A stretch of DNA of 64,000 bases from Patescibacteria group bacterium (lineage in GTDB: Bacteria; Patescibacteriota; Patescibacteriia; Veblenbacterales; UBA10138): NCBI GenBank assembly GCA_018817715.1, contig JAHITT010000006.1, positions 218,804-282,803 of the forward strand. The letters are read 5' to 3'. Positions 4,016 through 59,128 of the stretch are shown here, piece by piece. The position numbers and the translations under genes are program-made. The notes beneath the pieces were generated by a model. The model saw only the letters and a program-made list of their open reading frames with translations, made no database searches and was not told where the DNA came from. Every line of letters begins with the position of its first letter. Within the stretch, counting starts at the first letter, position 1.

Positions 4016-4444
4016 TTAATCCTCTACTGTAACACCCATTTGCCGAGCCGTACCTTCAATAATCTTCATAGCACCCTCTAAATTATTGGCATTTAAATCT
4101 GGCATTTTTTTCTCGGCTATTTCCTTAACCTGTTTCTTGGTTATTTTACCTACCTTAGTCTGCAAGGGTTTACCAGAACCCTTTTCTATGCCAGCTGCTT
4201 TTTTAATAAGTTCAGCGGCCGGCGGTGTTTTGAGTATAAAAGTATAAGTTCTATCTTCAAAAACCGTTATTTCTACTGGAGTTATTTCGTTTCCTTTGTC
4301 TTTGGTAGCGGCATTAAACTTGGTACAAAACTCTTGAATATTAAGACCATGCTGACCCAAAGCTGGACCAACTGGCGGAGCTGGATTAGCTTTACCGGCT
4401 GGAATTTGTAATTTAATTACTGTCTTTATTTTCTTGCTAGCCAT
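4016..4444 (-). CDS. rplK: 50S ribosomal protein L11
   Basis: Start moved to the ATG at 4444 ([44 protein letters not shown]...), the L11 signature. The track ORF carries a 15-codon N-terminal extension. Confidence 0.9.
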
Positions 4445-4510
4445 AAAATTAATGAATAGATAACTATCCGCCAAAGGCGGACCCGCCACTGGCGGGAAAT
4501 TTAAAGTAAA

Positions 4511-5056
4511 TTATAATTTCTGAATTTGCAAAAAATCCAATTCTACTGGAGTTTCTCGACCAAACATAGAAACTAAAGCCTTAACCTTACCGCGCGCCTC
4601 ATCCACTTCAGAAACCTTGCCTTCAAAATCCTTAAAAGGACCATCGACAATTTTAACCGGCGTACCAGGCGTAACATCTATTTGATACTTGGGCTCTTCT
4701 ATACCCATTCTTTTTTGTAAGGCCTTTATTTCGTCCTCGGCAATCGGCGTCGGCGTCGTGCCGGCACCAATAAATCCGGTAACATTGGGGGTATTACGAA
4801 CCACATACCAAGAATCGTCCGTTACCTGCATTTCCACTAACACGTAACCAGGGAAAATTTTTTCTTCCACTATACGACGCTTGCCATTTTTAATACGAAT
4901 TTTCTTTTCTGTAGGAATAAGCACGTTAAAAATCCTATCTCCCATATCCATTGATTCAATACGTTGCTTTAAATTACGAGAAACATTTTCCTCGTAACCG
5001 GAATAAGTATGCAGAGCATACCAACGCCTACCTACGCCACTTGTTTGCCTAGACAT
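4511..5056 (-). CDS. nusG: Transcription antitermination factor NusG
   Basis: RWYALHTYSGYEENV... NGN domain and C-terminal KOW (GTPVKIVDGPFKDFEGKVSEVD). Sits in the secE-nusG-rplK-rplA order. Confidence 0.9.
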   Translation of the reverse strand: MSRQTSGVGRRWYALHTYSGYEENVSRNLKQRIESMDMGDRIFNVLIPTEKKIRIKNGKRRIVEEKIFPGYVLVEMQVTDDSWYVVRNTPNVTGFIGAGTTPTPIAEDEIKALQKRMGIEEPKYQIDVTPGTPVKIVDGPFKDFEGKVSEVDEARGKVKALVSMFGRETPVELDFLQIQKL

Positions 5057-5067
5057 AAATTAAATCT

Positions 5068-5256
5068 TTAAAAACCTAACAATCTTTCCAAACCAAGATT
5101 CAAAAAGTAATCAATCGCACCTAAAAAAACCGCCACAGCTAAAGATATCCCAATAACCAGCAAAGTATGCTGGGTGGTTTCTTTTTTGGTTGGCCAGGCT
5201 ACTTTTTTAAATTCCTGGTAAGAATTTTTTAGATAATCTGTCAATAAATTAGCCAT
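5068..5256 (-). CDS. secE: Preprotein translocase subunit SecE
   Basis: 62 aa with a single C-terminal TM helix (TLLVIGISLAVAVFLGAIDYFL) and the conserved position upstream of nusG. Confidence 0.8.
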   Translation of the reverse strand: MANLLTDYLKNSYQEFKKVAWPTKKETTQHTLLVIGISLAVAVFLGAIDYFLNLGLERLLGF

Positions 5257-5312
5257 AAAATATTCCTTTATTAGCTCCTAGCCTTAGGCTACAAGCTATT
5301 TTAGACTCTTTT

Positions 5313-5339
5313 AAAAGGCCCGTGTCAGGCCTTTTACAA
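5313..5339. terminator. Hairpin terminator between the giant ORF and secE
   Basis: aaaaggcc-cgtgtca-ggcctttt, an 8-bp stem with short T runs on both strands. Presumably ends the pheST-gyrB-giant transcript before the secE promoter. Confidence 0.4.
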
Positions 5340-5393
5340 AACGAATAATATCAACCTTTATTAAATATGTCAAACTGGAACTATTAAGTTAAT

Positions 5394-8300
5394 CTAGCGA
5401 ATAATTGATCCAGAAAACTTCCTTTCACCATGTTCCCTAGACGATCCATTACCAAACTCCACATAATTATCGCTAAACGAAGACTTGGGAATATCAGCTA
5501 CCAAATCCTGAACTGATTCCGAAACCTTGATATCAGGCAAAACTGACTGCAAGCGTTTGTTTAACAGTGCTGCGTCTAAGCCTACACTTGACATAGCCTC
5601 CTGAGAAACCGACACAGATATTTTAGCTTCGGGTATTTCTTTTTTTATGGATTTATATTTTTTAACAATCGATATAATATTACTGATAAGAATATCCGGC
5701 GACTTAGAGCCATAAACTCTATCCATTACAAAAGACATTTCCTGGTTTCCCGCGGTGTCCTTGGTAGGTACAAAAAATACTATCTCATCAGAAATACTAC
5801 CCTTATCTTTCTCGGTCTGGTTTATAATGAAAAATTTATTAGAGTCACCAAAAGCCAAATTAGTGTCATTGTTTATCTCCTTTCTTAGGCAACCCAAACA
5901 TTGACGCATATTTTCTATTATCAAATTCAAATCCTTAGTTAAATGACTAACCACCATAGTATTAGTACTCTCCGAAAAAACAATTTTCTCAATATCAGCC
6001 AAACGTTTTTTCAACAACTCATGATTCTCTAAATGACTACTTTTCTTTATTTTGATAAAATATTCTTTTACTTTATCTAAAGTGATCTCTAAATCTTTCA
6101 TTTTTTCTTTAATAGAAGAAAGATAATTATTAACTTCTTTTTTTTCTTCCAAACTTATCTTATTTTCATCCTTAACTACTAAATTTTCTAAATAAATAAT
6201 ATCTTTACCTAAAGCCAAAGCTCCCGATGTTTGGGTAAAACTTTCACCCAACCTATTAAATATCTCTATAATCTTTTGTGATGGCGTAAGTCTTTCCCCT
6301 AATTCATTGATATTTCTTTCTACTCCTTCTTCCTGCATTTTACTAATCATATTGGAAACTAAACTAAAAGGCTGTAACTTATCTTGCGTCTGCTTTATTT
6401 TTTCTTTAGTCCAACCACCTATCCCTAATATTTCCGCCAATCTCGCCTGCAAAGCTTTTTCCTTGTCATCAAGGGTTATATCTTTACCATCCAAACTACC
6501 ATAGACTTTAGCTAAAACGGCCCCCACTTGCCTCCCTTCTATCTGCAATATCCTCATAATTTCCTTATCTAATTTATCTGGATAAATATCGGGGTCGGCC
6601 AATTCATCAATATTTCTTTTAATATTGCCTAATTTAATATCTACTGTTTCAATACTACCTACTATACTACTCATAACTTCTTCTTGTAATAATTGCTGAA
6701 ACTCTTCAGCTTTATCCAAGCTAATACCAGCTACCTCCAAAGACAAAGAAGCTATCTTAGTTTTATTTTCTAAAATAGGTTTAACTAATTTTATTTGTTT
6801 ATCCGAAAGGTATTCTTCTAATATAATAGCTTTATTCTCGCGAAAATCAGACCATTTACTGTTCAATTCCAAACCTAAAAATAAAGCTACCAAAGCTTCT
6901 TTAGTTTCATTACGGTTATTAATATTTCCTATATAACGGACACAATTATGAACAGATCTTATATGTTCTTTAGTAAAATTTTCCGGAACATTTATAATAC
7001 CAAAACGTTCCTTAAAACTATTCTTAACAACTTCCACTAATCTTACTTTTTCTGCAGACAAACAATCAGCTTTTTCTTTTGGGCTATTTTTTAAATTATT
7101 TACTAACTCACGGATAGTCAATCTAACTCCAACCAAATCCTTAGCCTGATAACTTGGCTCGCCCTCATCATCTATTTTTTGCAAAATTATTAACTGCGCT
7201 TGGTATAAAGGCAAAAGTTCTGTTAAGACAATTTTCATTTCTTTAGCTGATAATTCAGCAAATAATGATTCAAAGGTTGTATATAAACTTGGTGCCGCCT
7301 CTATTATATCATGTGATAAATTATAAAATTCAGCCTTGTCATCTTGTGGCCATCTTTCCCGATTCATTCGATTTTCCTGATTTGTTAACAATTCTTTAAT
7401 TTCCTTAATTGTTCGACTGGCTGTGGATTTACTCCTAGAAACAACATTAAATTGATAGACTAAATTTCCTAAAGACTCAACATATTTTAATGTCCCCGCC
7501 CCACCCATCTGATCTATAAAATTAGTGACTGCTAATAAATTTAAAGGCACTATTTTATTATCGCCCTTCAAAAATTCTATCCATTCTTTATGCATACTAC
7601 CAAAAGCGGCATCTTTATAATCACTGTTAAATAAATTTAAAATCCTGGTTTTATTTTCCGAGGTCAGATTTAATTTATTTTCTTGCTCAGCTACGTCTAT
7701 ATAACTATACAAACCCGCCGGCCACTCATTATCTTGAAAATCAACTTTTTGCTGTCCTTCTAAACCAGGGATTTGCAAAACCTGCTCACATTTTTCCGGC
7801 GAATAATCTATCAAAATTTCGTATAATTCCTGAATTGAATAACTGTTGCCAAAATATTTTATGTGACTTTTTAATTTATTTATTATACCGGTTCGAATTT
7901 CTAACTCCTGCACCGAACACTCTTTTAAAGAATCATATATCCAAAGCCAATTATCCATTAAAATATCCTTATCTATCAGATTAATTATGTCTTTTATAAC
8001 ATTAATTTTTTCCGGATTATTGGCTACAGTTTTTAATATCTGATTATTTCTATATCCATCCCAAATACTTTTTAAATTATTAATAAATTCCACGGGTGTT
8101 TTAACTAAAACATCTTTTTCCTCTTGATCAGTTAATTTACCGTATAAAAAATCATATAAATCTGACGGCACCAATAAACCAGAATTGTCCGCCTGTCTTA
8201 ACCCTGTAACCAATTTATTATATCCTCGGGTGTCTACCGCTTTATCTAACTGACCATTATTCAAAAATACTACTATTTTACTTTCTAAAATTTTTTGTTT

Positions 8301-10643
8301 TACTTCGTCAATATTTATATTTATATCTTTTGAATACTTATCCTTATCCAACAAAGAATCAAAAGCTTTTTCTCTAAACTCTAAAGATAATCCCTCAAAT
8401 AAAGAACTTTTTTCTTTAAATAAACGATAAAGTTTATTAACATCACTGCTAGAATAAACATCTACCAAATTAACAAAATATTCATTTTCTATGTCTGGCC
8501 TCAACTGACCTGATATTTCAATCAAAGTTTCAATAGCATAAATACGTAAGTTAATCGACCTAGCAGTGTCTTTTAAAATCTCTTTATATTTATCTAAATT
8601 GCTATTTATAATCTCAATTGACTGTTGGTGGCCACTCCTTTTTATATCTCTTAATTTGGCCCAATTCTTACTTTCAAAAGCTTGTTCAATAATTTTTTCA
8701 CTATGGTTATCTAAACAAATTTTATTTTCCCCAATTAAATTAAAATTGCTAACAAATTTATTTATATTATTATAACCATCGGCATAGTTTATATAATTAC
8801 CCTCTTCAATTATTTTTGTTATAGAATTAATTACTTTATCTCTGGATAAACCAAAAATTTTTATAACCTCTTCAAAATAATTATCGGGTTTATTTTCATA
8901 ATCATTAGATGATAACACCAAATCTACCAACATTTTTTCTATGGCCGTACAAACTTCTTTATCAGCTGTAATAAAAAACTTATGCGTTTCCGGATAATAA
9001 TCATCTATAAACTTTTTAATGTCTTTGGCCTCTTTAAATGATCTTAACCTACTTTCATTACACAAAGCTTTTTTAACAGCCAAAGCTCTAGCCGACTTAT
9101 CTTCAGGTAACCAATCAAGGCTGAATTTACTGTCCATATGTTCCAAATCATCCAAATCAGCTAATTCTATCTTTGATAAATACAACTTTTTCAATCTTTC
9201 TTGGGTTTCCGAATTATTATCATTAAATTTCTCAATATTAAAATTCTTTAAAATCCTTTCAATTACATACTTATGATAATTATAACCAAGCAATTCAATA
9301 ACCCCTTTAACTAAAGCCTGCTTAAATTCTGCCTCGGTAAAACCAGCTTTAATTTTTAAATTATTTAAATTATCATAATTCACCCCGTTCTTATCCCTTA
9401 ACAAAAATTCCACAGCTACTTCAACGACCTTTTTAATTATATTGTCTGGAACGCCAATTTTTTTTAAAACACCAAAAGTATCATCTACCTTAAAATCAAA
9501 AGATAAACTATAAGCAATACCGTTTATAAAATTCTCGGTCTGGCCATAATTATTTATAATATCTAACCAATCTTCTGGTTTAAGAATATCTTGCGATCTC
9601 TCAATACTGTAAAAAATATACTCGTCAGCGCTTTTATCTTTTATTCTATCAATAAGATATTCTTTTTCCCTTAACCGTCTTTTTTCTCTTAACTCCTTAA
9701 AATCAAATTGATTTTCTTTAAGGGAAAAATAATTCAACAATCTTTCATCTTTATAACCCTCATTATTAATATAAGAATCTTCAAACTTATTAACGGCAGC
9801 TATTTTGGCTTTGTCAGAAGATAAAAAATCGTCAATGAATTTATAATGCTTTCTTAATTTATCACAGTCTTCTTGATTACTTATTTTTTCTCTCACTAAT
9901 TGATTTATAACAGATTGTTCGAATTCTTCTTCGGTAATATTAAAAATCTTCTTGTAATCCCCCAAAACATCTCGCTCATAATCATTATTTCCTCTAAACC
10001 AAAAAACATTATGCACTAATCCTTTTAAAGCCTTAGCTTTTATCTCTGGCAAATCAGCCTTGATACCAGAAGATTTAAAATCTCCAAAATTAATTTCTTC
10101 AATTGATTTTTCTCTACTTAAATTTTTTTCCCTATCCTCTTTTATATAACCATAATCATCTCTATTAATCCTGTCCTTATCATTAATAAGTTCGCCGTAC
10201 TCAATCCTATGCAACCAATTACTCTGCTTAAAGTTATTAAATAAATCGCTTTTAAAAAAAGCGTCGTCTATATCATAATATTTTTTAAAATCTAAAAGAA
10301 TGCCTTTATAACCACTAAGTCCATCTCCCGTCTTTAACATCCTTTCTACCTGTTTAACAACTAAATTCTTAACGTAATCTGATTTTATAACTTCTGGGGG
10401 AAATTTCTCAGCATAATCATTAATAGCATAAAGATTCGGGCGTAAAGAAGCTTTGTCTTCTTCGGTATAATTCAAATATTTAATGTATTTTCTAAGTTCT
10501 AACCTATCAGCTGGGGACAAATCAAAAGAATACAAGAAATCTTTTTCTTTCTTGCATTCTATATCTTTATTAAAATCTAGTTCCTCTTGTAAATCAGAAG
10601 GGTTATTTTTTATTGTTTCTTTACTAACCCCGTCCTTAAACAT
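5394..10643 (-). CDS. Giant hypothetical protein (1749 aa), acidic, K/E/D/N/I-rich, predicted soluble and alpha-helical, no recognizable domain
   Basis: Uninterrupted 5.25-kb ORF. Its ATG (10643-10641) lies 3 nt after the gyrB stop (10649-10647), so it is translationally coupled to gyrB. No Walker, HExxH, Cys-cluster or TM motifs detected by eye. Its GC is clearly lower than flanking gyrB/pheT. Confidence 0.7.
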   Translation of the reverse strand: MFKDGVSKETIKNNPSDLQEELDFNKDIECKKEKDFLYSFDLSPADRLELRKYIKYLNYTEEDKASLRPNLYAINDYAEKFPPEVIKSDYVKNLVVKQVERMLKTGDGLSGYKGILLDFKKYYDIDDAFFKSDLFNNFKQSNWLHRIEYGELINDKDRINRDDYGYIKEDREKNLSREKSIEEINFGDFKSSGIKADLPEIKAKALKGLVHNVFWFRGNNDYERDVLGDYKKIFNITEEEFEQSVINQLVREKISNQEDCDKLRKHYKFIDDFLSSDKAKIAAVNKFEDSYINNEGYKDERLLNYFSLKENQFDFKELREKRRLREKEYLIDRIKDKSADEYIFYSIERSQDILKPEDWLDIINNYGQTENFINGIAYSLSFDFKVDDTFGVLKKIGVPDNIIKKVVEVAVEFLLRDKNGVNYDNLNNLKIKAGFTEAEFKQALVKGVIELLGYNYHKYVIERILKNFNIEKFNDNNSETQERLKKLYLSKIELADLDDLEHMDSKFSLDWLPEDKSARALAVKKALCNESRLRSFKEAKDIKKFIDDYYPETHKFFITADKEVCTAIEKMLVDLVLSSNDYENKPDNYFEEVIKIFGLSRDKVINSITKIIEEGNYINYADGYNNINKFVSNFNLIGENKICLDNHSEKIIEQAFESKNWAKLRDIKRSGHQQSIEIINSNLDKYKEILKDTARSINLRIYAIETLIEISGQLRPDIENEYFVNLVDVYSSSDVNKLYRLFKEKSSLFEGLSLEFREKAFDSLLDKDKYSKDININIDEVKQKILESKIVVFLNNGQLDKAVDTRGYNKLVTGLRQADNSGLLVPSDLYDFLYGKLTDQEEKDVLVKTPVEFINNLKSIWDGYRNNQILKTVANNPEKINVIKDIINLIDKDILMDNWLWIYDSLKECSVQELEIRTGIINKLKSHIKYFGNSYSIQELYEILIDYSPEKCEQVLQIPGLEGQQKVDFQDNEWPAGLYSYIDVAEQENKLNLTSENKTRILNLFNSDYKDAAFGSMHKEWIEFLKGDNKIVPLNLLAVTNFIDQMGGAGTLKYVESLGNLVYQFNVVSRSKSTASRTIKEIKELLTNQENRMNRERWPQDDKAEFYNLSHDIIEAAPSLYTTFESLFAELSAKEMKIVLTELLPLYQAQLIILQKIDDEGEPSYQAKDLVGVRLTIRELVNNLKNSPKEKADCLSAEKVRLVEVVKNSFKERFGIINVPENFTKEHIRSVHNCVRYIGNINNRNETKEALVALFLGLELNSKWSDFRENKAIILEEYLSDKQIKLVKPILENKTKIASLSLEVAGISLDKAEEFQQLLQEEVMSSIVGSIETVDIKLGNIKRNIDELADPDIYPDKLDKEIMRILQIEGRQVGAVLAKVYGSLDGKDITLDDKEKALQARLAEILGIGGWTKEKIKQTQDKLQPFSLVSNMISKMQEEGVERNINELGERLTPSQKIIEIFNRLGESFTQTSGALALGKDIIYLENLVVKDENKISLEEKKEVNNYLSSIKEKMKDLEITLDKVKEYFIKIKKSSHLENHELLKKRLADIEKIVFSESTNTMVVSHLTKDLNLIIENMRQCLGCLRKEINNDTNLAFGDSNKFFIINQTEKDKGSISDEIVFFVPTKDTAGNQEMSFVMDRVYGSKSPDILISNIISIVKKYKSIKKEIPEAKISVSVSQEAMSSVGLDAALLNKRLQSVLPDIKVSESVQDLVADIPKSSFSDNYVEFGNGSSREHGERKFSGSIIR

Positions 10644-10646
10644 AAA

Positions 10647-12674
<2,028 letters not shown>

Positions 12675-12694
12675 TTATCTATCAAAAAATATAA

Positions 12695-15076
12695 TTAAAT
12701 ATCAAATTTAGCTTTAAATTTTTCCTGCAGTAATTTAACAACCTTCTTTTCCACCATGTCTGCTTCGGTCGAAGTTAAGGTTTTAGCCTGACTACGCAAA
12801 ACAAGTCGCAAAGTCAAAGCATTTTTAAGCTGATAATAACCAAGATAATCCACGCTTTCAATTAATTCATCAGCCTTAATAAGCAAATCATAAATTGTTT
12901 GCCAATTAATTTCTGTCGGATACTCTGCCACATTAAAAGTTATATCCCTATCTATAGCTGGATAGGCTGGAATTTTTTTATACAATACAGTTGCTGTCTC
13001 AGCCGGCAATAAATCTAAATCTATTTCACAAAAAGCCATTGTATAACCAGCTTTTTGAATTTTACCACCCTGAACCACTTTTTTATCTGCTAAAAGTACT
13101 TCGAATCCTTCCAATGAATCCATTTGTTTATTGGCCCATTTAACCAACTCACCTAATTCTACCAAATTAAATATTTTTTTAACTGCCCCTTTTAATTCTT
13201 CAAAAATATCTTTATAGGTCTGTTCTGTTGAGCTAATTAAACAAAGAACTAAATGATGGGATTGAATTTTTGTTATGTCATCTGTTTCTATAGTTTTATT
13301 AAAAACTCGACCCATCTCGTACATTTTTATTATTTTATTTTCACCCAATATTTTAAAATTATTAGTCACTTGGTCTAAAACCAACCCGACTAACATCTGT
13401 CTTAAATAAGGTTGTCCAGCATCTACAGGATTAACTAATTCCAACCTAGCTTCTTTAACAGCTCCTAATAAATCTTTTTCCCCCACAAACGAATAAGTCA
13501 TTGTTTCGTGCCAACCTAACGAAGCTAACAAATCTCTTATTTTCCAGCGCAGTTCTTGTTTAGGATCTTTAGGCGGTGGAGTAATGGGAAACTTAGGTAA
13601 AATTTTAGGCAATTTACCATAGCCATAAATTCTAGCCACTTCTTCCACTAAATCTTCAGGAATCGTTATATCGCGCGTGGCCCTAAAACTGGGCGGCGTA
13701 ACAATTAGTTGGTCCCCTTTATCTTCCACTTTAAATTCCAAACGGCTTAAAATTCCTATAACTTCTGGTTTGCCAATATCGGCTCCTAACCTACGCCACA
13801 GCCATGGTAAAGATAATTCAATTGGTTTTATTTTTATGGGTTTAGGATATTCATCCACCACCCGACTTACCACCTTGGCGCTCGGTATTATTTCCATAAT
13901 CAATTTAACCACTCGGCGCAAAGCTATTTCAGATAATTCTGGATCCAAAGATTTTTCAAATCTAACCGAAGCCTCGGTCCTAAGGCCTAGTTTAGCCGAA
14001 GTTTGCCGAATATTTATAGGTTCAAAATTAGCGCTTTCTAAAACTATGGAAATGGTATTATTATCTACTTCACTATTATTGCTGCCCATTACACCGGCAA
14101 TCGCTATAGCCTTTTTTTTATCAGCAATCACCAGCATATCTTCAGTTAATTTTCTCTCCACACCATCTAAAGTAATTATTGTTTCGCCTGACTTAGCCGG
14201 GCGCACTAAAATATCCGGACTGGCTAGTTTGGCTAAATCAAAAGCATGCAAAGGCTGCCCCAATTCCAATAAAACATAATTGGTAATATCCACAATATTA
14301 TTTACAGACCGCACACCTAAACAAGTTAAAATTTGTTTAAGCCATTTGGGTGACGGACCGACTTTTAAACCAGACATTACCACGCCCAAATAACGCTTAG
14401 CTTTGGCTTTATCTTTAAGACTAACCCTTAAAGCTACTTCTTTAACTGTTGACTCTATTGCTGGCGGCTCGGGTAAATTAAAAGGCACCTGCCAAATAGC
14501 GCTAAGTTCTCTAGCTAAGCCAACATGCCCCCACAAATCCGGCCGATGGGTTAAAGATTTATTTTCTATATCTAAAATAACATCATCATAAGCCAAAGCT
14601 TCTGCTAGCGGCGTACCTGGTTTAGCTTCCAAATCTGTTAAATCCATAATACCCTGCTCCACTGCCTGATCATCGGGTAAAGCTAACTCCTCGGCCGCGC
14701 AGGCCATGCCTTGGCTAGTCTGACCCCGAATAACTGCTTCTTCCAATTTTATAAAATCGCCTTGGCCATGCCACTTTACCATGGCACCAGGTTTGGCTAA
14801 GGCCACTTTCATACCTTGACGCAAATTCACCCCGCCGCAAACTATAGTTACGGATTCTTTACCAATATCCACTTGAGCCATTTTTAATTTGTCTGCCTGA
14901 GGGTGGCTATAAACTTCCGTTACCTGCCCCACCACCACGTTTTGCAATCTTTGCGACTGATTAACCACCTCTTCTACTTCCACCACGCTCATAGTTAAAG
15001 CCTCCATTAATTCCTGATCGGATAATGGTTTGGGTGGTTGAACAAATTTTTGCAATAATTGCCAGGAAATTAACAT
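12695..15076 (-). CDS. pheT: Phenylalanine--tRNA ligase beta subunit
   Basis: 793 aa. N-terminal tRNA-binding domain (VVGQVTEVYSHPQADKLKMAQVDIG), B3/4 and B5 regions, C-terminal anticodon-binding-like domain. Directly downstream of pheS. Confidence 0.9.
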   Translation of the reverse strand: MLISWQLLQKFVQPPKPLSDQELMEALTMSVVEVEEVVNQSQRLQNVVVGQVTEVYSHPQADKLKMAQVDIGKESVTIVCGGVNLRQGMKVALAKPGAMVKWHGQGDFIKLEEAVIRGQTSQGMACAAEELALPDDQAVEQGIMDLTDLEAKPGTPLAEALAYDDVILDIENKSLTHRPDLWGHVGLARELSAIWQVPFNLPEPPAIESTVKEVALRVSLKDKAKAKRYLGVVMSGLKVGPSPKWLKQILTCLGVRSVNNIVDITNYVLLELGQPLHAFDLAKLASPDILVRPAKSGETIITLDGVERKLTEDMLVIADKKKAIAIAGVMGSNNSEVDNNTISIVLESANFEPINIRQTSAKLGLRTEASVRFEKSLDPELSEIALRRVVKLIMEIIPSAKVVSRVVDEYPKPIKIKPIELSLPWLWRRLGADIGKPEVIGILSRLEFKVEDKGDQLIVTPPSFRATRDITIPEDLVEEVARIYGYGKLPKILPKFPITPPPKDPKQELRWKIRDLLASLGWHETMTYSFVGEKDLLGAVKEARLELVNPVDAGQPYLRQMLVGLVLDQVTNNFKILGENKIIKMYEMGRVFNKTIETDDITKIQSHHLVLCLISSTEQTYKDIFEELKGAVKKIFNLVELGELVKWANKQMDSLEGFEVLLADKKVVQGGKIQKAGYTMAFCEIDLDLLPAETATVLYKKIPAYPAIDRDITFNVAEYPTEINWQTIYDLLIKADELIESVDYLGYYQLKNALTLRLVLRSQAKTLTSTEADMVEKKVVKLLQEKFKAKFDI

Positions 15077-15091
15077 GTTATAAAAACAAAA

Positions 15092-16132
15092 TTAAAATTG
15101 TTTTAAAAATCTTAAATCACCGCTTAAAAATAATCTAATATCATCTATTTTATAACGCATCATAGCTAAACGAGATAAACCTAAACCAAAGGCCAAACCC
15201 GAATACTTTTTAGGATCAATACCGCCGGCCTTTAAAACATTAGGATGAACCAAACCACAAGGCAAAAGCTCTACCCAACCGCGCTGTTTACACACACTAC
15301 AACCTTGCCCGGCACAAATAAAACATCTGATATCCAATTCAAAGCCGGGCTCCACAAAAGGAAAATAACCCGGCCTAAGCCGAACCTCTACCTGACGTTT
15401 AAAAATACCAGCCAATAATTCAGACATAACAGCCACTAAATTAGCAATGGAAATATCGGTATCTATAACCAAACCTTCCATTTGCCAAAAAGTATGCTCG
15501 TGCGAAGCATCAGTAGCTTCGTACCTAAAAACTCGCCCCGGCACCACGGCTCTAAGTGGTGCTCCGTATTCCTTCATGGCCCGAATTTGCACCGGCGAAG
15601 TATGTGTCCTTAATAACCAACGATTAACTGGCTGACCGCCTTTAACATAAAAAGTATCTTGGGTATCGCGCGCCGGATGCCAAGCAGGAATATTAAGTGC
15701 TTCAAAATTATGATATTCGTCTTCCAACTCCGGACCATCCAATACCCTAAAACCCATAGACCTAAAAATATCTTCCAAGTCCCTTTGCACCTGCATTAGT
15801 GGATGAATTGAACCTACTGGCAATTTTTTACCCGGCACAGTTACATCAATTGCTGATTTATCTAAAGATTCACCAGTTAAGCCCTGAAGTAATCCCTGAT
15901 AAGCTGTTTGCAATTCATTTTTTATCTGATTAGCTAATTGACCTAAAACCGGCTTTTCTTTTTCTATAGTGTCTTGGAGTAATTTTAAAAGATGACTTAA
16001 TTCACCCTTACGACCTAAATATTTTTGTCGCCAAACTTCCACCTCGGCCGAGGATTTTATTTTAGCCACTTCTTGAAGAGCAGTCTCTTTTAATAATAAA
16101 AAATTATCGCGTAAGGACACAATTTTAATCAC
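15092..16132 (-). CDS. pheS: Phenylalanine--tRNA ligase alpha subunit
   Basis: 346 aa, class II core: FRVLDGPELEDEYHNFEALNIPAWHPARDTQDTFY, motif 2/3 (GLAFGLGLSRLAMM). Confidence 0.9.
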   Translation of the reverse strand: MIKIVSLRDNFLLLKETALQEVAKIKSSAEVEVWRQKYLGRKGELSHLLKLLQDTIEKEKPVLGQLANQIKNELQTAYQGLLQGLTGESLDKSAIDVTVPGKKLPVGSIHPLMQVQRDLEDIFRSMGFRVLDGPELEDEYHNFEALNIPAWHPARDTQDTFYVKGGQPVNRWLLRTHTSPVQIRAMKEYGAPLRAVVPGRVFRYEATDASHEHTFWQMEGLVIDTDISIANLVAVMSELLAGIFKRQVEVRLRPGYFPFVEPGFELDIRCFICAGQGCSVCKQRGWVELLPCGLVHPNVLKAGGIDPKKYSGLAFGLGLSRLAMMRYKIDDIRLFLSGDLRFLKQF

Positions 16133-16514
16133 TAACCGTCGAGCGGCGGCCGGTTAAAGCCAAAAATTCCAATAAACTTAAAGTCAAAATCAACAATAAT
16201 AAATTCCACCAAGTAAGCAAACCATTAACTTGCAAAAATAAAGAAATAATAACTATAACCGACAACCACACAGCTTGCCTAAAAGAAACCGAAATCTGTC
16301 TGAATAAAACCTCATCTTGGCGCCTAAAATAACGCCAAGTAAACCCCAACAAGGTTAAACTACCAACTAAACTTAAAAATAAAGCCAAATAAAAGAAAAC
16401 CAATCCCATGGTGCCCGCCACCTCGGGATTAAGATAATTTATGACCAGGAGAAAAGCACCCCAGGAAACAAGGGTGCCTAACGACATCCATATAAGATAA
16501 TACTTAAGCTTCAT
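16125..16514 (-). CDS. Hypothetical 4-TM membrane protein
   Basis: 129 aa with four hydrophobic helices. Overlaps the pheS start by 8 nt (likely co-transcribed). Confidence 0.5.
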   Translation of the reverse strand: MKLKYYLIWMSLGTLVSWGAFLLVINYLNPEVAGTMGLVFFYLALFLSLVGSLTLLGFTWRYFRRQDEVLFRQISVSFRQAVWLSVIVIISLFLQVNGLLTWWNLLLLILTLSLLEFLALTGRRSTVSD

Positions 16515-16629
16515 ATTTGGCTAAAAATGCGAAAAAAGTATCTAAAGAACACTACTTAATTATAGCATGTTTTAGGCTTTGTTACAAGCTATGATTAAGT
16601 AACTAAAATTAGTTGCTTTATGGCTAAAA

Positions 16630-16926
16630 TTAGGCAAAAATCCTTAATCGATAAACCTTACCATTAAGCTTAGATCTTAAACTGTCTATAATATCAATTT
16701 CTAACATTCTTAATTCACTAGCCAAGCCGGGCGAAGACAAAGAAACTTCCAAAGTATCACCCCTTAAAACAGCTCGGCGAACCGCCTCAGCCGCGCTTTT
16801 ACCAAAGCGAGTAGCCACCTCTTGTTTAAAGGCCTCCGCCACCATAGAAGCCTCTACCGCACCAGCCACTCCTTGCTGACGCAGTCTATCGGCTAATAAT
16901 TTCTTAATTTCTTGAAACATAATCAA
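16630..16926 (-). CDS. DUF721/DciA-like small protein
   Basis: 98 aa. ...GDTLEVSLSSPGLASELRMLEIDIIDSLRSKLNGKVYRLRI resembles the conserved core of DUF721 proteins usually found near gyrB/recF. Assignment is by pattern memory only. Confidence 0.4.
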   Translation of the reverse strand: MIMFQEIKKLLADRLRQQGVAGAVEASMVAEAFKQEVATRFGKSAAEAVRRAVLRGDTLEVSLSSPGLASELRMLEIDIIDSLRSKLNGKVYRLRIFA

Positions 16927-16951
16927 TTAAAAAAGACTATCTCTTATCGTT

Positions 16952-19948
16952 TTAAGATAACCCTATTTTACGATAATGACAATCATGATTTATTTTTTCA
17001 TCTAACTGGGCAAAAGAATCATTTTTTATAGTGGCCACAACAGAATCAATCAAAGTTACATATTCTTCTTTAAAAGAACTAAGCTGTTTAGGGCTAGCCA
17101 AAAAGAGTTCAGTTAATTTATCGGGCTCTAAATACCAATACTGCCCACCGACTACTTTTTCCTTTAAAAAACTTTCAGCTGCCAACTGATAAATTATCAA
17201 TTGATCGCGATCTACTTTTTCTAAATTTTTTATAGCGCTACCACCAGTTTTATAATCAATAATCACCACCCCATCGTCCACCCGATCCAAACGATCTATT
17301 TTACCAGTAAATTTATAAGGCCCCATACCCACTTTAAACATTTTTTCTAAATATTTAAGGTGAGGTTTGGTTTTTAAAAAATTTTGATAAAAATTATCCA
17401 ACTGTTTGGGACCGCGCTGATTTCGATATTTTTCTTTATCTGTCTTATTATCATACCAATCATCTATCCAAGATTGCTGGTAATAATCCAATAATTGCTG
17501 CTTGGTTGGCAAAGCCGCTGGGGTAACTTTTCCTTGGGAAAACAAATCGCCCTGCTGTAAACCTTGACTTTGCCTATAAAAACGCAAAAACTTTTCCAAA
17601 GTATTATGAATTGTTATACCAAAACTCATAGCCCCAGAACCTGGCAAAGGTAAATTAAATAAATATTTATATTTGTATTCCAAGGGACACTTTCTAAAGG
17701 TAGACAAAGAACTGAAAGAATGACTTTTGGGCAAACGATAAGTTGCTTTGTTTAAACCAGCTAAATTAACCACCTCTAAGCTTTTATCTAAAGTTTTATT
17801 AATTACTTGTTTAGTCGGTTCAATTAACCCCAATTCATAAAGAAAACAAGAAGGCTTACGAACAATTTTACCAAAGTAATCCTTAGCCTGGGTTAAAAAA
17901 ACTCCCTGCTTGGCCCTGGTTAAAGCTACATAAAATAAACGCCTTTCTTCCTGCAAATGCACATCCCCGTCCGGTAAAGTTTCTTTAATAAATTCCACGG
18001 GCAAAGCAATTGATTCCCGCCGCTGAGTACTGGGAAATCGACGATCAATCAGTTGAACAACAAAAACATACTTCCATTCCAAACCTTTAGCCGAGTGAAC
18101 AGTAATTACTTTAACCGTATCGGGACCTTCTTCATAATCAGCTGGCAATTCGCCTTCTTCCCCGGCTTCTATTTCCAAAGACAAATAATTCAAAAAACCA
18201 ATTAAGGATTTGTCGCTACTAGCTTCTTCAAAATTTTGTAACCGCTTATAAAAAGTGCCCAATAAAGTAGCTTCCCGTTCTGGGGAATCTATTTTAGCTA
18301 AACGGGTATTATAACCTAAATCATTTACTAAATTAACATATAGCTCGGCCACGCTTTTTTGTTTAGCTAAAGAACTGTGTTTGGCTAAAACGTCTAATAA
18401 GTTTTGGCAAATTGTTTCGGCTGCCGAACTTAAAGACAAGGTTTGCCTAACCTCTACAGCTTGGTACAAAGAAATCGTTTTCTTCTTGGTATAGGACAAA
18501 AGTATAGCCAAGTCGGCTGGCGGCAAAGAAAAAAACTGAATAGTTAAAACACGATACAAAGATTCACTGTCTTGATAATTACCTAACAACCTTAAATAAC
18601 TAATAATTTCTAAAATAATCGGCTCTTGATACAAACCCTTGCTGGCCACATAATCAAAAGGCAACTGACTAGCTTTTAATTGTCGTAAAAAAACACCAGC
18701 CGAAGAATTGGCCCTGACTAATATGGCAAAATCACTCCAATTAATCTGCTCCTGCTTTTTTAAGTCTAATATTTTTTTAACCACCCCCTTAGCCTCATCA
18801 TCGGCCGTCATAAAACTTAAATATTCTATATGACCTTTATCCAGACTGACGGATTTTAATTTTTTAGAAAATTTAGTTGTTTTATTACTTAATTTAGCCT
18901 CCAATCGATAAGGGTTATTTAACTGAATAAACTTATAAGCCAAATCCAAAATATTTTGTCGGCTACGATAATTGGTATTTAAAAATACTTCTTTAGATTT
19001 AGGATAATCCTTTTTAAATTCTAAAATATTAGACAAAGAAGCGCCTCGAAATTTATAAATAGACTGATCGTCGTCACCAACCATAGTTATATTCTGATGG
19101 GCGGCTAGTAACTTAATTAATTCATATTGAGAATGATTGGTATCCTGAAACTCATCCACCAAAATATACTTAAACTTTTTTTGAAAATATTCCAAAACTT
19201 TTGGCCGCCTCTTAAATAACTTAAGGGTGTAATTAATTAAATCACCAAAATCCAAATAACCCTTAGCCAATAAAAGTTGCTGATAAGTCTGATAAGCTCG
19301 GGCCACCTCCAAAAGTCGAGCCGCTTCCGCTTCATCGCCGGAATTTTGCTCATTAACAGTTTTTATTTTTTGTTTTTTAATTTTTGTTTTTTTGGCCTTT
19401 TTTAAATACTCTACTGAACCACTGTCTAAAACCCTATTCTGAGCTAAGTCCAAATATTGCTCCGGCCAAATTTCTTCATCCTTGGCCCGAGAAAAATGCT
19501 GCAATAAAGCATGAATAAATCTGGTAGGGTTACCCAAAGGGCGATAATAATCCAAATTAAACTTATCCAAATTATTCCTAACCAAAATCCACTGCTCAGT
19601 CTGATTTAACAATTTAAAATCACTCGGCAAGCCTATTTCCAAAGCGTAATCTTTTAATACTCTCTCAGCAAAAGCATGAAAAGTCATTAACCAAACATCC
19701 ACATAACCCAAAGGCAATAACTTATCTACTCTTTCTTCGGTTTCCAAAGCTGCCTTGTCGGTAAAAGTTAAAGCTAAAATTTCATCTGATTTAGCTAAGC
19801 CCTGCTGAATTAACCAAGCCACTCGCTTAGTAATAACAGTTGTTTTACCCGTACCGGCCCCGGCCACAATTAACAACGGGCCGGACTTATGAGTTACCGC
19901 TTCAATTTGCTGATTATTTAAACCCACTAATAATTGATTATCAGACAT
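16952..19948 (-). CDS. ATP-dependent DNA helicase, UvrD/PcrA (SF1) family, with C-terminal PD-(D/E)XK RecB-like nuclease domain
   Basis: 998 aa. Walker A LIVAGAGTGKTT, motif II VDEFQDT, motif VI-like region. The C-terminal approx. 250 aa carry a Cys-containing Cas4/RecB-like nuclease pattern (CPLEYKYKYL...GKIDRLDRVDDGVVIIDYKTG...QLIIY...CHY). Confidence 0.8.
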   Translation of the reverse strand: MSDNQLLVGLNNQQIEAVTHKSGPLLIVAGAGTGKTTVITKRVAWLIQQGLAKSDEILALTFTDKAALETEERVDKLLPLGYVDVWLMTFHAFAERVLKDYALEIGLPSDFKLLNQTEQWILVRNNLDKFNLDYYRPLGNPTRFIHALLQHFSRAKDEEIWPEQYLDLAQNRVLDSGSVEYLKKAKKTKIKKQKIKTVNEQNSGDEAEAARLLEVARAYQTYQQLLLAKGYLDFGDLINYTLKLFKRRPKVLEYFQKKFKYILVDEFQDTNHSQYELIKLLAAHQNITMVGDDDQSIYKFRGASLSNILEFKKDYPKSKEVFLNTNYRSRQNILDLAYKFIQLNNPYRLEAKLSNKTTKFSKKLKSVSLDKGHIEYLSFMTADDEAKGVVKKILDLKKQEQINWSDFAILVRANSSAGVFLRQLKASQLPFDYVASKGLYQEPIILEIISYLRLLGNYQDSESLYRVLTIQFFSLPPADLAILLSYTKKKTISLYQAVEVRQTLSLSSAAETICQNLLDVLAKHSSLAKQKSVAELYVNLVNDLGYNTRLAKIDSPEREATLLGTFYKRLQNFEEASSDKSLIGFLNYLSLEIEAGEEGELPADYEEGPDTVKVITVHSAKGLEWKYVFVVQLIDRRFPSTQRRESIALPVEFIKETLPDGDVHLQEERRLFYVALTRAKQGVFLTQAKDYFGKIVRKPSCFLYELGLIEPTKQVINKTLDKSLEVVNLAGLNKATYRLPKSHSFSSLSTFRKCPLEYKYKYLFNLPLPGSGAMSFGITIHNTLEKFLRFYRQSQGLQQGDLFSQGKVTPAALPTKQQLLDYYQQSWIDDWYDNKTDKEKYRNQRGPKQLDNFYQNFLKTKPHLKYLEKMFKVGMGPYKFTGKIDRLDRVDDGVVIIDYKTGGSAIKNLEKVDRDQLIIYQLAAESFLKEKVVGGQYWYLEPDKLTELFLASPKQLSSFKEEYVTLIDSVVATIKNDSFAQLDEKINHDCHYRKIGLS

Positions 19949-39361: not shown

Positions 39362-41263
39362 TTATCTAACTACTACCCCCTTACCTTGAGCAGCCAAATC
39401 ATCTTCTAAATCAGTTGTAACTAATTTACTAGTGGCTATAACATCGGCTCCAGAAAAAGAATCCCGCCCGCTAGCTGTGCTAGTTTTAATAAGTACTAAT
39501 ATTTTATCAGCATCATACTCAGCCGGTGTCACAGCCACCTCAAACGAAGCCTCTGGCGCTGGTGATATATTTCCCGCCCAAGCTACTACCTTATCCAATC
39601 GCCAACTTACTTCTCGAGTATTCGGATTATAAGCCACATTACCTAAACTAGCCGTTGTTTGGCCGGTCCAACTAACACCTAAAGGTAAGGTAGCGGTTAT
39701 TTCCGCTTTTTCTAAATCATTAAGGCTGTTGTTTAAACGCCAAAATAAAACATAAGTGGTCGTTTGATTCACCTGAGGTGGTAAGGGTCCCGAACCTAAT
39801 TTAATAAGCTGGTCAGTATAATACCGCCCCTCAGCCGATAATTTTAAAACCGTATTAATTTTAGTGGTAATTACATTAGACTCAGATAAAACCGGCTGTA
39901 AATCTTTATCCCTTAACTGTTGTCCGGAAGCTTTAGCCTGGGTATTAAAACTAGCAGCTGTTCTTATGCCTGCTGGTAAAACCGATTTCAATTTTATACT
40001 CCATTTCAGAATAGCCCGACCGCCTGGCTGTAAAGCTTGTAAACTGGCTAATTCCCGTCCGGTCCAAACTATGGTTCCCTCGGCTCCCTCTGGCCGACCA
40101 CCGCCTTCATCCTTCAAAGTAAGCCAATCCAAATAATTACCATCTATTTTTATTTCTACATTAAGATCGGTTACCGGCTTATCACTTTCGTTGGCTAATA
40201 ATAATTGATAAGACATTTCCTGGCCTAAATCAGCCGAGCTTTTTAAAACTACATCGTTAACCGTTAGACTCACCTTAAGTTGCGGTTTAATAACGTTAAC
40301 TTCTAAAATTTTTTCTTCTTGAACTATAAACTCAGACTGTTGACCATTTACACCCACTGCCAAAGCAAAAGGTTGTTCGCCAGGTACAGCGCTTAAGGTA
40401 AAACGTCCTTTAAATTCCACAATTGATTCTTGATTAGGCTCTAAATCGGGTAACAACCAAACATTATTACTGTAATCAGTTTTAATTAATTCTGGAATAG
40501 TTAATTCAAAACCACCAGGCGAAACAAACCTAATTAATAAACCACCAATCTCTTCTGAAGAACTATTACGATAAGTGGCTTTAAACAAAGCTTCTTGATC
40601 CAAAACCAACTCTTTAGGACCGGTTACTTCTAAATTTATAACTGAAGCTATTAACTCCGTGCCAAAACTTAAACTTTTAGAATATTGCGCCCGAACATTA
40701 TCCGGCTCATAAGACAACAAAACTCCAAAATTTTTAGTTTCACCAACCTGACCAACTAATTGACCTTTTATAATTATTTCGCCTTTAGTTTTACCAGCAA
40801 TCGTTGGTAAAATAAAATTAGTTCCTCCTTCGTTAACCGCCATAGGTTCAGACGCCATAAAAGTAAAACCATCCGGATAGCGTAAGTTAATATCAATAGC
40901 TTTAAGACCAACTGTTTGGTTATTATTATAAGTTAAACGATATTCCACTGTTTGCCCGGAAGGCACAGCCGAAGGACCAATTAATGCAAAATCTATCGCT
41001 TCTTCACCAAATTTATCAGCCCCACTAAAAACAAAAAAACCCGCCACAGCTAAAACTAAAGCGGTTGTTAACAAACCAATTAAATACCACCAAAAACGAC
41101 GGCGCTTAGCTTCTTTTAAAGCCTCCGGCAAATCAACTTCTCCTGAGCGATTATAAAAATTACCTAAAGCCTGTTCAGCTTGTTTTAGGTCTTTAGCTTT
41201 GCTAATAGCCGACTGATTATCAGCTGGCGAGATGGTAAAATCGTTTACTCTACTAGGTTTCAT
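39362..41263 (-). CDS. Membrane-anchored surface protein with DUF11/CARDB-like repeat domains
   Basis: 633 aa. About 55-aa cytoplasmic N-terminus, a single TM anchor (WWYLIGLLTTALVLAVAGFFVF), then repeated approx. 100-aa beta-rich modules (e.g. ...VEYRLTYNNNQTVGLKAIDINLRYPDGF..., ...MSYQLLLANESDKPVTDLNVEIKIDG...) typical of DUF11 conserved-repeat cell-surface proteins. Confidence 0.6.
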   Translation of the reverse strand: MKPSRVNDFTISPADNQSAISKAKDLKQAEQALGNFYNRSGEVDLPEALKEAKRRRFWWYLIGLLTTALVLAVAGFFVFSGADKFGEEAIDFALIGPSAVPSGQTVEYRLTYNNNQTVGLKAIDINLRYPDGFTFMASEPMAVNEGGTNFILPTIAGKTKGEIIIKGQLVGQVGETKNFGVLLSYEPDNVRAQYSKSLSFGTELIASVINLEVTGPKELVLDQEALFKATYRNSSSEEIGGLLIRFVSPGGFELTIPELIKTDYSNNVWLLPDLEPNQESIVEFKGRFTLSAVPGEQPFALAVGVNGQQSEFIVQEEKILEVNVIKPQLKVSLTVNDVVLKSSADLGQEMSYQLLLANESDKPVTDLNVEIKIDGNYLDWLTLKDEGGGRPEGAEGTIVWTGRELASLQALQPGGRAILKWSIKLKSVLPAGIRTAASFNTQAKASGQQLRDKDLQPVLSESNVITTKINTVLKLSAEGRYYTDQLIKLGSGPLPPQVNQTTTYVLFWRLNNSLNDLEKAEITATLPLGVSWTGQTTASLGNVAYNPNTREVSWRLDKVVAWAGNISPAPEASFEVAVTPAEYDADKILVLIKTSTASGRDSFSGADVIATSKLVTTDLEDDLAAQGKGVVVR

Positions 41264-58000: not shown

Positions 58001-59128
58001 GGCTTCTTTGTCATTACCCAACTTATCTTTTTTTAACTGCAACAAATCAGCTAAAGCCTGTTTGTAATCTTTCTTGGCTTGGCTGAATTCTTTTTGCTCT
58101 GTGCGACTAGCGGCTGGCAAAGACCATTCATAGGGTATTTTACTAAAAATCGTGGCTGCTTTATTAAAATTGGCTAATTTGGCCTGGTCAGTTGAATTTA
58201 ATTCTTGACGGCTACCACCAACCGCAACTTTAACATAGTCCTCAGCTCGACCCCCGTAAGATACTTCTATTTGCCCTAAACTATTAATTGTTGCATCCAA
58301 TCCACTATCCTTTATTATTGTTATTAAAGCTTCCATATCAGCCCGCTGCTCGGCCAAACCACCCTGTTTGGACTTGGTATATTTAACCTTGGTTTCCTTG
58401 GCTACATAATATTTTTTAAGCAGGTTTCTTTTAATTTTAGTAAAAAATTTAGATTCACCTGTTTCCTTCTTATAATCATCTAAAGCTTCACTTTTTATTC
58501 TGGATAAAGTCGTTTGCTTTAAATTTTCCAATAACAAAGCTTGCTGACCAACAGTTAAATCAACAAAACCGGGAACACTATTTAATTCTTCTGGTTTTAT
58601 GTTAAAAAATTTGGCAAACTCAACTGCTAACTTATCTGCTCTAACAACCTCTGGCGCCATTACCGGCTGAACCGGTTCGGCCTCCACAACCGACTGATCC
58701 ATTACTACTGGCTCCACCTGAGAAGAATTGTCCGTTTTTTTATCTACTGACGGCAAACCAACTTGATTTTTATATTCTTCCATAAAACCTTTTAAGGCTT
58801 TTCTAATCTCACTATTGGTAGTTCGCTTAATTTTATTCTTATCCAACCAATCTAAATCGTCTTTATTTAATTTACTTAACCCACCTTTTTTTAATATAGA
58901 AAAAGATTGATTATAATTTTCCTCGGTTAAAGGAATAATATTTATAACCCCTTTTAATTTCTCTGGCTCTTTCTCTTGACTAATTTTGGTAATATTATCA
59001 GCGGCCTGAACAAAAGCCTCATCAAAATCAGCCGGATTTACTTTGTCCACAGAACCACTGTTGGCAGAATCTTCCTTACCTTGATTAAGCAATTTGTTTA
59101 TCTCGTCTTGTGATAATATCTCAACCAT
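55070..59128 (-). CDS. Large hypothetical membrane-associated protein (1352 aa)
   Basis: Continuous 4.06-kb ORF. Two Gly/Ala-rich hydrophobic segments (GTYFLGGLGSRALVAGALGVWAAPVVAAASGATLAW at about aa 430; GAALGAGFAYLGGLVKEGAGHLF at about aa 690). C-terminal Ala/Glu/Lys coiled-coil (AAQEAIRQAEELEARLKAQDAIEKAEKLLKEK). No catalytic motif recognized. Confidence 0.65.
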   Translation of the reverse strand: MVEILSQDEINKLLNQGKEDSANSGSVDKVNPADFDEAFVQAADNITKISQEKEPEKLKGVINIIPLTEENYNQSFSILKKGGLSKLNKDDLDWLDKNKIKRTTNSEIRKALKGFMEEYKNQVGLPSVDKKTDNSSQVEPVVMDQSVVEAEPVQPVMAPEVVRADKLAVEFAKFFNIKPEELNSVPGFVDLTVGQQALLLENLKQTTLSRIKSEALDDYKKETGESKFFTKIKRNLLKKYYVAKETKVKYTKSKQGGLAEQRADMEALITIIKDSGLDATINSLGQIEVSYGGRAEDYVKVAVGGSRQELNSTDQAKLANFNKAATIFSKIPYEWSLPAASRTEQKEFSQAKKDYKQALADLLQLKKDKLGNDKEAALATKDIDYQVQMERLFKANPNIEKALKQVDSNKFWVKALGNVATERGTYFLGGLGSRALVAGALGVWAAPVVAAASGATLAWRRFKQDMAETESARRRGVDFTSKDEKNLKEKIKANKERLVRARELLEVKQLVSNVVDIDDPTHEIPQEVRELHGNILQAIEESSRLNAQLYEAGLKKADKAFVTAEQAKGKIEKLLNDYESADEEKKQELRGLLKTRIFYTKDKLDKGLIDFGANDKNLFNKYELLKYLSLAETTVVAGDSKLLVDVDGLTIEQRLKSFIKTHEDIVGSRKASKLLWQITKGAALGAGFAYLGGLVKEGAGHLFSSGSKTQDVSEIINQSSSPQFSESTLQDGAVIDALSHKYGFKIPDLQTADATTIKTQADYLRALDEAISNTKINGQSMTPELLQNFKANHPEMFAGNKVPTAEEITVRWQKDIDIATVGSGEGIEHKAIEQILDNPKKFGFDGDLTNSKAVREFANRLAHQTAIDEGYVTEQGELRLKSSAQGEQIRFVIGADGKAHYEFGQGLDSQDVYQQAPIPKTIEVEPIKTENLDWWNSEYKQGSLVETAMPAGGNSGLTAYEFLGQDGTKGSLLVDSQSHEILYSVDAADYGDDYANQVQSSYEIFNQTIDKVDKAIGEAGQNWGAADKLLVAEWSAGHTGLDKADIITTLQSAKSGRITELAEHVGSKAPQYLRDTDFGSYLSTKTNLADLSPTKANKLWEIGQTIKGNGFKSVDYRFVDKMFYSSDKNLGWTVEGDKFIADVKTPLLNKAVELPIADKSHFNESFYLDNKQIANRIALNEQVVLSKLGADFSNEEARQIMSMDVKDFKLSSLENHFGKGFLMFNNNSTIENWFHDMEPKLQGANSGTVGENLHQYFVDKKGVLASWHFKGDNVQAVEQSITPQQTVSQVEIVDKPAVVDDKINNVESVKLNSDLEKSKIAAQEAIRQAEELEARLKAQDAIEKAEKLLKEK

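Follow-up and report, generated by a model that had tools for sequence, protein, structure and literature searches.

A giant protein family of Patescibacteria with a predicted GNAT-like terminal domain: a candidate scaffolded acyltransferase

Large proteins and complexes that carry a GNAT unit are known from several systems. NatA consists of the helical scaffold Naa15 and the GNAT subunit Naa10, Pat/PatZ/YfiQ carry a large N-terminal domain followed by a C-terminal GNAT domain, and TmcA/NAT10 combine a helicase with a GNAT domain; the Pat and TmcA types act on macromolecules. Patescibacteria, for which the name candidate phyla radiation (CPR) is also in use, hold a sizeable part of the diversity of bacteria, and no function has been assigned to much of the gene set that they conserve. 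Here we describe a giant open reading frame (ORF) from a Patescibacteria group bacterium of the Veblenbacterales (assembly GCA_018817715.1, contig JAHITT010000006.1). It lies in the window analysed here, which is the whole stretch of 64,000 nucleotides (nt) from position 218,804 to 282,803 of that contig, and all coordinates are those of the window unless another locus is named.

By sequence comparison the giant protein is a member of a large unnamed family which has escaped domain annotation. For its terminal 200 amino acids (aa), the most strongly conserved part of the gene, a fold resembling that of a very divergent GNAT acyltransferase is predicted. We infer tentatively, with a probability of about 0.42, that the protein is a scaffolded acyl-transfer enzyme whose target is intracellular and conserved. 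The operon position and the low GC content of the gene, which had first drawn attention to it, are largely incidental, and the interest lies in the conserved C-terminal module.

Predicted fold and conserved residues of the terminal domain

The structure of aa 990-1749 was modelled by AlphaFold2 (AF2) from a 58-sequence alignment, and a second AF2 model was made of the terminal domain alone. The 760-aa model had a mean predicted local distance difference test score (pLDDT) of 86.6 and a predicted template modelling score (pTM) of 0.74, and the domain-only model had a pTM of 0.83. In the larger model aa 990 to about 1555 are almost wholly helical and the last ~190 residues are alpha/beta. The first-pass annotation had predicted an all-helical protein, which stands for the former part of the modelled region and fails for the latter. 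The terminal domain shows the element order b1-a1-a2-b2-b3-b4-a3-b5-a4-b6-b7 (b, strand; a, helix), which is the GNAT order, in both AF2 models. No Foldseek match to the model was significant (best E 0.14), and the list was dominated by GNATs (NatD, TacT/AtaT/GmvT, AAC(2') and Ard1), with Naa20, 40, 50, 60 and 80 also among the structural matches. The structural assignment is uniform in kind and modest in score; the terminal domain is described here as GNAT-like in its predicted fold, and membership of the superfamily is not claimed as demonstrated.

The resemblance to TacT, AtaT and GmvT, along with a weak PADLOC match to PD-T4-5 (E=8e-4, 16.7 bits), could be taken to indicate an anti-phage defence or toxin protein. 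The PADLOC match covers only 61 of the 309 profile positions and falls at aa 859-919, in the non-conserved N-terminal region, and the GNAT toxins ranked no better than housekeeping GNATs among the structural matches. The family is also near-ubiquitous and usually single-copy, its surroundings are housekeeping genes and not variable islands, and it has no conserved antitoxin-like partner. A role in defence or toxicity is therefore hardly credible.

An alignment of 37 diverse members shows 18 invariant positions in the 200-aa terminal domain and a further 17 that are near-invariant. The family signature is E-N-x-R-x-C-L-x-C-x5-N-N-D-T, in which E1577, N1578, R1580, C1582, L1583, N1591, N1592, D1593 and T1594 are invariant or at least 95% conserved; the pLDDT of the signature loop is low (57-63). 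The motifs IEN[MI]R.CL and NNDT[ND]L.F, present at aa 1575-1598 and invariant in the alignment A7, retrieved the 93 confirmed loci of the genome scan given below. When placed on the model, the conserved positions are T1569 at the end of b1; E1577, N1578, R1580, C1582, L1583, C1585 and N1591-T1594 on a1 and the following loop; K1603-F1604 on b2; S1616 and D1619 at the start of b3; D1641, Y1644 and G1645 at the end of b4; K1661 and K1662 on a3; A1683 after b5; and S1721, D1725, Y1727, E1729 and R1736 in the b6-b7 loop. In characterised GNATs the acceptor site is built by the loops a1-a2 and b6-b7, and the b4/b5 region carries catalytic residues and the cofactor. The conserved residues of the family fall on these acceptor-site and b4/b5 elements of the model, as would be expected of an active GNAT-type centre. 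The tightness of this conservation across CPR lineages suggests a conserved, probably macromolecular substrate. The helical part of the module has near-invariant residues of its own (N1240, W1264, R1268, T1333, D1335, D1350, D1352, Q1420, E1467, S1473-G1474, D1481, K1491 and Y1507), with S1473-G1474 lying in a low-confidence loop of the model.

The same residues may be read in another way. The GNAT-like domain may be a pseudo-enzyme or binding module, and the 200-kDa protein a non-catalytic factor that structures or organises the CPR cell, such as a cytoplasmic scaffold or a platform for assembly or chaperones, in which the invariant residues would form a protein-protein or protein-nucleic-acid interface. 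So many invariant polar and charged residues within 200 aa (E,N,R,C,N,N,D,T,S,D,D,Y,S,D,Y,E,R), shared by CPR lineages that bear the labels of different candidate phyla, would be more usual in an active site than in an interface, these residues fall on the elements of the GNAT active centre, and the ratio of nonsynonymous to synonymous substitution rates (dN/dS) in the domain, 0.05, is the lowest of the gene. A purely structural role is for these reasons considered unlikely, though still worth keeping in mind.

A GNAT fold with different chemistry was also considered. The donor could be an aminoacyl-tRNA, as in transferases of the Fem, L,F-transferase and ATE1 type, or acyl-(acyl carrier protein) with S-adenosylmethionine, as in acyl-homoserine-lactone synthases, and the invariant Cys1582 might serve as a covalent nucleophile. 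This is held to be improbable.

Several observations weigh against the scaffolded acyl-transfer enzyme. Where GNATs have the Q/R-x-x-G-x-G/A motif of the b4-a3 loop, which binds the acetyl-CoA pyrophosphate, the family consensus is instead D-x-x-Y-G-x-[KN]-[ST]-x-D, and only the central Gly (G1645, 98%) matches GNAT motif A. No Pfam acetyltransferase family (those tested include PF00583, PF13508 and PF13673) was matched by the whole protein, by six pieces of it at E<=10 or by the 37 domain sequences at E<=10. Profile searches of PDB gave zero matches with A5 at E<=1 and with A7 at E<=10. HHalign against a 104-sequence RimI alignment gave a probability of 0.1%, equal to that of the reversed control, with a shallow RimI profile (Neff 1.4), the sequences retrieved for it being nearly all enterobacterial; GNAT genes were sought in ~1 Mb of CPR DNA for a profile and none was found. 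Helix a2 is seen in the 760-aa model (H603-610), but the domain-only model has a loop of low confidence in its place, and the GNAT fold as a whole is a predicted one. No conserved gene neighbour was found across the loci of the relatives, so the surroundings give no pointer to a substrate. On the other side, occasional fusions of family members to protein-signalling or modification domains (two FHA domains, an ABC1 kinase and a weak calpain-like match) are counted in favour of the acyl-transfer enzyme.

Family architecture and distribution in Patescibacteria

Standard domain libraries do not recognise the giant protein. The whole protein and six pieces of it gave nothing at family threshold in Pfam or NCBIfam and only marginal matches in PHROGs and PADLOC, and phmmer against the PDB sequences returned two chance-level matches only. 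The earlier description of the protein as lacking any known domain is therefore right for sequence libraries, and has to be amended by the conserved 760-aa module and its GNAT-like predicted fold. It had also been foreseen that a known family might explain the protein as a routine surface or repeat protein; no such match occurred, and the only likeness found is the remote, fold-level one to GNATs. The acidic character (pI 5.3) and the richness in K, L, E, I, D and N were confirmed, and internal repeats, transmembrane (TM) segments and signal peptides were looked for in the protein and none was found.

An exhaustive HMMER search with a profile of aa 600-1749 against 1.84 billion representatives gave 262 cluster representatives at E<=1e-3, of which 213 were at E<=1e-30. 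The word-indexed search was much poorer: the full protein returned itself and one relative, P0002 (1762 aa, 55% identity), because low-complexity words swamped the candidate list, and aa 1300-1749 returned 18 short fragments. With at least 262 representative clusters across CPR, the giant ORF is not the isolated oddity it had appeared to be. All named members are annotated as "hypothetical protein" of Patescibacteria or Parcubacteria metagenome-assembled genomes (MAGs), without a precomputed Pfam domain, and a search of the literature found no specific prior description of the family.

The members are mostly 1500-2800 aa long. The matches span profile positions ~390-1172 and lie nearly always at the extreme C-terminus, so that the architecture is a variable N-terminal region of 700-2000 aa followed by a conserved C-terminal module of ~760 aa (aa 990-1749 of the giant protein). 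Local phmmer and jackhmmer comparison found aa 1-989 recognisably homologous in about 16 of the 166 collected sequences, while the closest full-length relatives (P0002 and P0004-P0007) align with the giant protein end to end; in the alignment with P0002 the last ~750 aa are far better conserved than the remainder. When N-terminal domains were sought with Pfam in 22 of the longest members, one marginal match was obtained. Selection follows the same division. Against the orthologue of locus L001, dN/dS was 0.21-0.35 for aa 1-990, 0.22 for 991-1250, 0.07 for 1251-1548 and 0.05 for 1549-1749, with dS near saturation; purifying selection is strongest on the C-terminal module and reaches its extreme in the terminal domain. 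A TM-like segment is absent from 121 of the 123 full-length members, and since the proteins are mostly TM-free they are probably cytoplasmic.

In most loci the alpha/beta domain closes the ORF. In some loci of Peregrinibacteria and Gracilibacteria, and in unlabelled ones, the ORF runs from 570 to more than 2000 aa past it (L088, L074, L047, L068, L076, L077 and L080). The extension of L088 (6505-8640 of that locus) carries a pair of FHA domains (E=3.5e-13) together with a weak calpain-like match (E=3.9e-4, below the Pfam gathering threshold), that of L074 (6595-11904) has an ABC1 atypical kinase domain (E=1.3e-10), and the other extensions gave no match in Pfam. A 199-aa tail in L075 was considered as a canonical GNAT and rejected, as Pfam gave no support. 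In two loci the giant gene appears as three consecutive ORFs in different frames, of 382, 520 and 690 aa in L002 (5719-10484, flanked by rve-type transposases) and of 478, 594 and 615 aa in L003 (2767-7893); each may be a pseudogene, a product of assembly frameshifts or a gene that is truly split.

The distribution was surveyed in GTDB with one genome per species. The scan was seeded by exact signature motifs and confirmed by tblastn, and its 93 confirmed loci (80 kept), from more than 15 CPR lineages, are a lower bound. The lineages include Nomura-, Falkow-, Kerfeld-, Harrison-, Levy-, Berkel-, Magasanik-, Davies-, Shapiro-, Woese- and Dojkabacteria, as well as Paceibacterota, Minisyncoccia, many Saccharibacteria (including Nanosyncoccus and rumen lineages), Gracilibacteria and Peregrini-/Peribacteria. 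Every member with an informative taxon label belongs to Patescibacteria/CPR, and the family is apparently restricted to this group; a scan of IMG/VR viral contigs found no relatives. Twenty GTDB loci carry the titles "uncultured Gammaproteobacteria" or "Bacillota" (L010, L011, L014, L018, L021, L024, L025, L036, L047, L048, L050, L054, L055, L058-L060, L068, L074, L076 and L084). They interleave with the CPR lineages and are mostly 50-73% identical to their best CPR-labelled neighbour (only 39-41% for L068 and L074), which suggests wrong or placeholder labels on CPR MAGs. A few genomes, some Saccharibacteria among them, have two copies, such as L073 and L081, about 8.5 kb apart on contig CAMYZS010000001.1, and L049 and L075 in assembly CAMJKD01.

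A bolder view of this distribution is that the family is a CPR-defining, near-universal enzyme of ~200 kDa with an extremely divergent GNAT fold and an invariant Cys/NNDT insertion, carrying out a modification not known from other bacteria and essential in the cultivable Saccharibacteria. The enzyme could, for instance, acylate a target in the ribosome, in translation or among the cell-envelope precursors, a reaction specific to the reduced and host-dependent way of life of Patescibacteria. In this full form the proposal is regarded as doubtful.

The gene and its surroundings

The coordinates of the gene, its parts and its neighbours are collected in Table 1. The product is identical to the NCBI entry [quoted passage not shown] in the searched collection. 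The first-pass annotation had reported an uninterrupted 5.25-kb frame, and this was confirmed. The per-codon stop probability at the local composition is 0.095, which gives a probability of ~1e-76 for 1749 codons without a stop; 200 shuffled sequences contained no open run longer than 153 codons. The giant ORF is a genuine protein-coding gene, because of this probability and of a dN/dS of 0.05-0.35 against a 55%-identical orthologue.

Table 1. Position of the giant gene, its parts and the neighbouring features in the window
Feature	Coordinates	Strand	Description
Giant ORF	5394..10643	(-)	1749 aa + stop, ~202 kDa, pI 5.3; from ORF list and translation
N-terminal region, aa 1-989	7677..10643	(-)	lineage-specific; no Pfam match; dN/dS 0.21-0.35
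Conserved helical part of module, aa 990-1548	6000..7676	(-)	
Terminal alpha/beta domain, aa 1549-1749	5397..5999	(-)	predicted GNAT-like fold; 18 invariant positions
Signature E-N-x-R-x-C-L-x-C-x5-N-N-D-T, aa 1577-1594	5862..5915	(-)	end of helix a1 and following loop
gyrB	10647..12668	(-)	immediately upstream; Pfam DNA_gyraseB, Toprim, HATPase_c, GyrB_C
pheT	12695-15076		upstream; Pfam
pheS	15092-16132		upstream; Pfam
secE	5068..5256	(-)	62 aa; first downstream gene; read from sequence, 62-aa L001 orthologue has PF00584 SecE
Sigma-70-like promoter match	5345..5373	(-)	TTGACA-17-TGnTATTAT, 11/12; between giant ORF stop and hairpin
GC-rich hairpin	5312..5336	(-)	AAAAGGCC...GGGCCUUUU; folding free energy -15.5 kcal/mol, z -3.5; 4-T tail

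The gene is co-directional with pheS, pheT and gyrB and directly downstream of them, as Pfam on the upstream genes confirmed, and the junction sequence bears out the reported spacing: the gyrB TAA is at 10649-10647 and the ATG of the giant ORF at 10643-10641, which leaves a spacer of 3 nt. Co-transcription with gyrB is plausible here. The first description of this position implied a different idea, that the gene is a lineage-restricted or horizontally acquired outlier tied to the pheST-gyrB operon, for instance a coupled gyrase accessory in the place of gyrA. The short spacer on the same strand, a GC content ~2 standard deviations (sd) below the window mean and the gyrB-giant-secE synteny in L001 and L009 speak for it. 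The family itself is CPR-wide and vertically conserved, and the gyrB/secE position was seen only in the three closest relatives (window, L001 and L009). Among the 80 GTDB loci one (L009) lies near gyrB, secE, nusG, L11 and L1 and the other 79 do not. A comparable ORF thus does occur at related gyrB loci, and the position holds no functional information for the family as a whole; the relative P0002 has the same gyrB/giant/secE/nusG context. The translational coupling that had been proposed is not a conserved feature, L001 having a stop-to-start spacer of 18 nt and L009 one of 58 nt together with a GTG start. No DNA_topoisoIV domain or GyrA C-terminal beta-pinwheel was detected by Pfam, which was empty on the whole protein and on six pieces of 250-300 aa, and the suggested gyrA slot is thus unsupported. 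Other relatives are placed after ruvX-recO and before asnS/aspS, after HIT/HAD genes, before peptidase U32-ruvA, after a UvrD-type helicase or before PhoH. A tie to gyrB, already largely refuted, is very unlikely, and the gene's place behind gyrB is a chance product of the dense packing of genes in CPR, limited to this lineage and outside the mechanism.

The GC content bears on the same idea. The giant gene has 30.1% GC, gyrB 41.3% and pheT 38.2%, and the mean of 40 window ORFs of at least 150 aa is 37.2% (sd 3.1); at third codon positions (GC3) the gene has 25.1% against 30.8% (sd 3.2) for the window ORFs, ~2 sd low. The gene is therefore AT-richer than its neighbours, as first noticed, but the contrast of 27% with 42-47% given at that time was overstated, the difference being real but modest; one other window ORF (749-1429) has a GC content equal to that of the giant gene. 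The deficit is mostly due to amino-acid composition (first and second codon positions) along with a slightly lower GC3. The 55%-identical orthologue of L001 has 30.4% GC with flanks of 37-39%, and because it shows the same pattern the low GC is an inherited property of the gene with no sign of recent transfer, so that the implied recent foreign origin is not upheld.

The 137-nt gap before secE holds both a promoter match and a hairpin. The promoter match is the best promoter-like site in 4400-17200, its -35 and -10 elements are partly conserved in L001 and L009, and as judged from the sequence it is a probable secE-nusG promoter. The hairpin, whose stem is conserved and loop variable in L001 and L009, had been taken as a terminator of the giant gene. 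It exists, but with its 4-T tail it is a weak terminator candidate and was not called by the terminator scan; it may be a terminator of the upstream unit, a 5' leader or regulatory element of the secE-nusG transcript, or both. Downstream of secE are nusG, rplK and rplA (NusG, L11 and L1 by Pfam).

The rest of the window is made up of housekeeping genes in a long run on the minus strand (aminoacyl-tRNA synthetases, ClpB, ATP synthase and an AddA-like helicase-nuclease). A 129-aa ORF at 16125-16514 (-) overlaps the start of pheS by 8 nt, has no Pfam match and has a GC3 of 41.5%, unusually high for the window. Two adjacent ORFs on the same strand, at 55070-59128 (-, 1352 aa) and 59178-61040 (-, 620 aa), have no Pfam domain at E<=1e-5 and may add to the uncharacterised proteins of CPR. 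At 39362-41263 (-) a 633-aa ORF with a DUF11 repeat stands out among the housekeeping genes and is likely to be a surface protein.

Proposed function and comparison with known systems

In the proposed scaffolded acyl-transfer enzyme, the terminal domain would probably be the working transferase, moving an acyl group (acetyl in the simplest case) from a thioester donor to a macromolecule or metabolite that is intracellular and conserved. The helical part of the module, itself conserved, may hold or select the substrate, by analogy with the helical Naa15 that holds Naa10 in eukaryotic NatA, and the variable N-terminus could provide lineage-specific docking. The gene costs ~5 kb in a likely small genome (531-kb contig), yet it is kept by purifying selection in many CPR lineages that go under the names of separate candidate phyla. 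An enzyme-like predicted domain of GNAT fold with a sharply defined invariant motif is a concrete experimental handle in the genetically tractable Saccharibacteria.

The family is like the Patescibacteria-enriched families of unknown function (Meheust et al., used in PMC10633639) in being apparently CPR-restricted and widely conserved. Transposon sequencing of Southlakia epibionticum found 73 of 116 Patescibacteria-enriched genes to be essential (PMC10633639).

With members of the GNAT superfamily (RimI, Naa40/NatD, AANAT, AAC(6'), TacT/AtaT and LasI) the identity is only 3-14%, without any Pfam, HMMER or HHalign signal. The unique, invariant E-N-x-R-x-C-L-x-C...N-N-D-T insertion of the family replaces a normal a1-a2 segment, and the domain is no free-standing enzyme of ~160 aa but the C-terminus of a protein of 1500-2800 aa. 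Pat/PatZ/YfiQ and TmcA/NAT10 would be reasonable analogues, being large cytoplasmic proteins of several domains whose GNAT domain is C-terminal or nearly so; their recognisable N-terminal domains (acyl-CoA-synthetase-like and helicase, respectively) and their canonical GNAT motifs were, however, not found in the family. There is a further analogy, in architecture only, to NatA, and also to NatB and NatC, in which a very large helical part is likewise joined with a small GNAT-fold unit. The family differs from NatA in having both parts in one polypeptide, and no tetratricopeptide or Naa15-like repeats were detected in it by Pfam.

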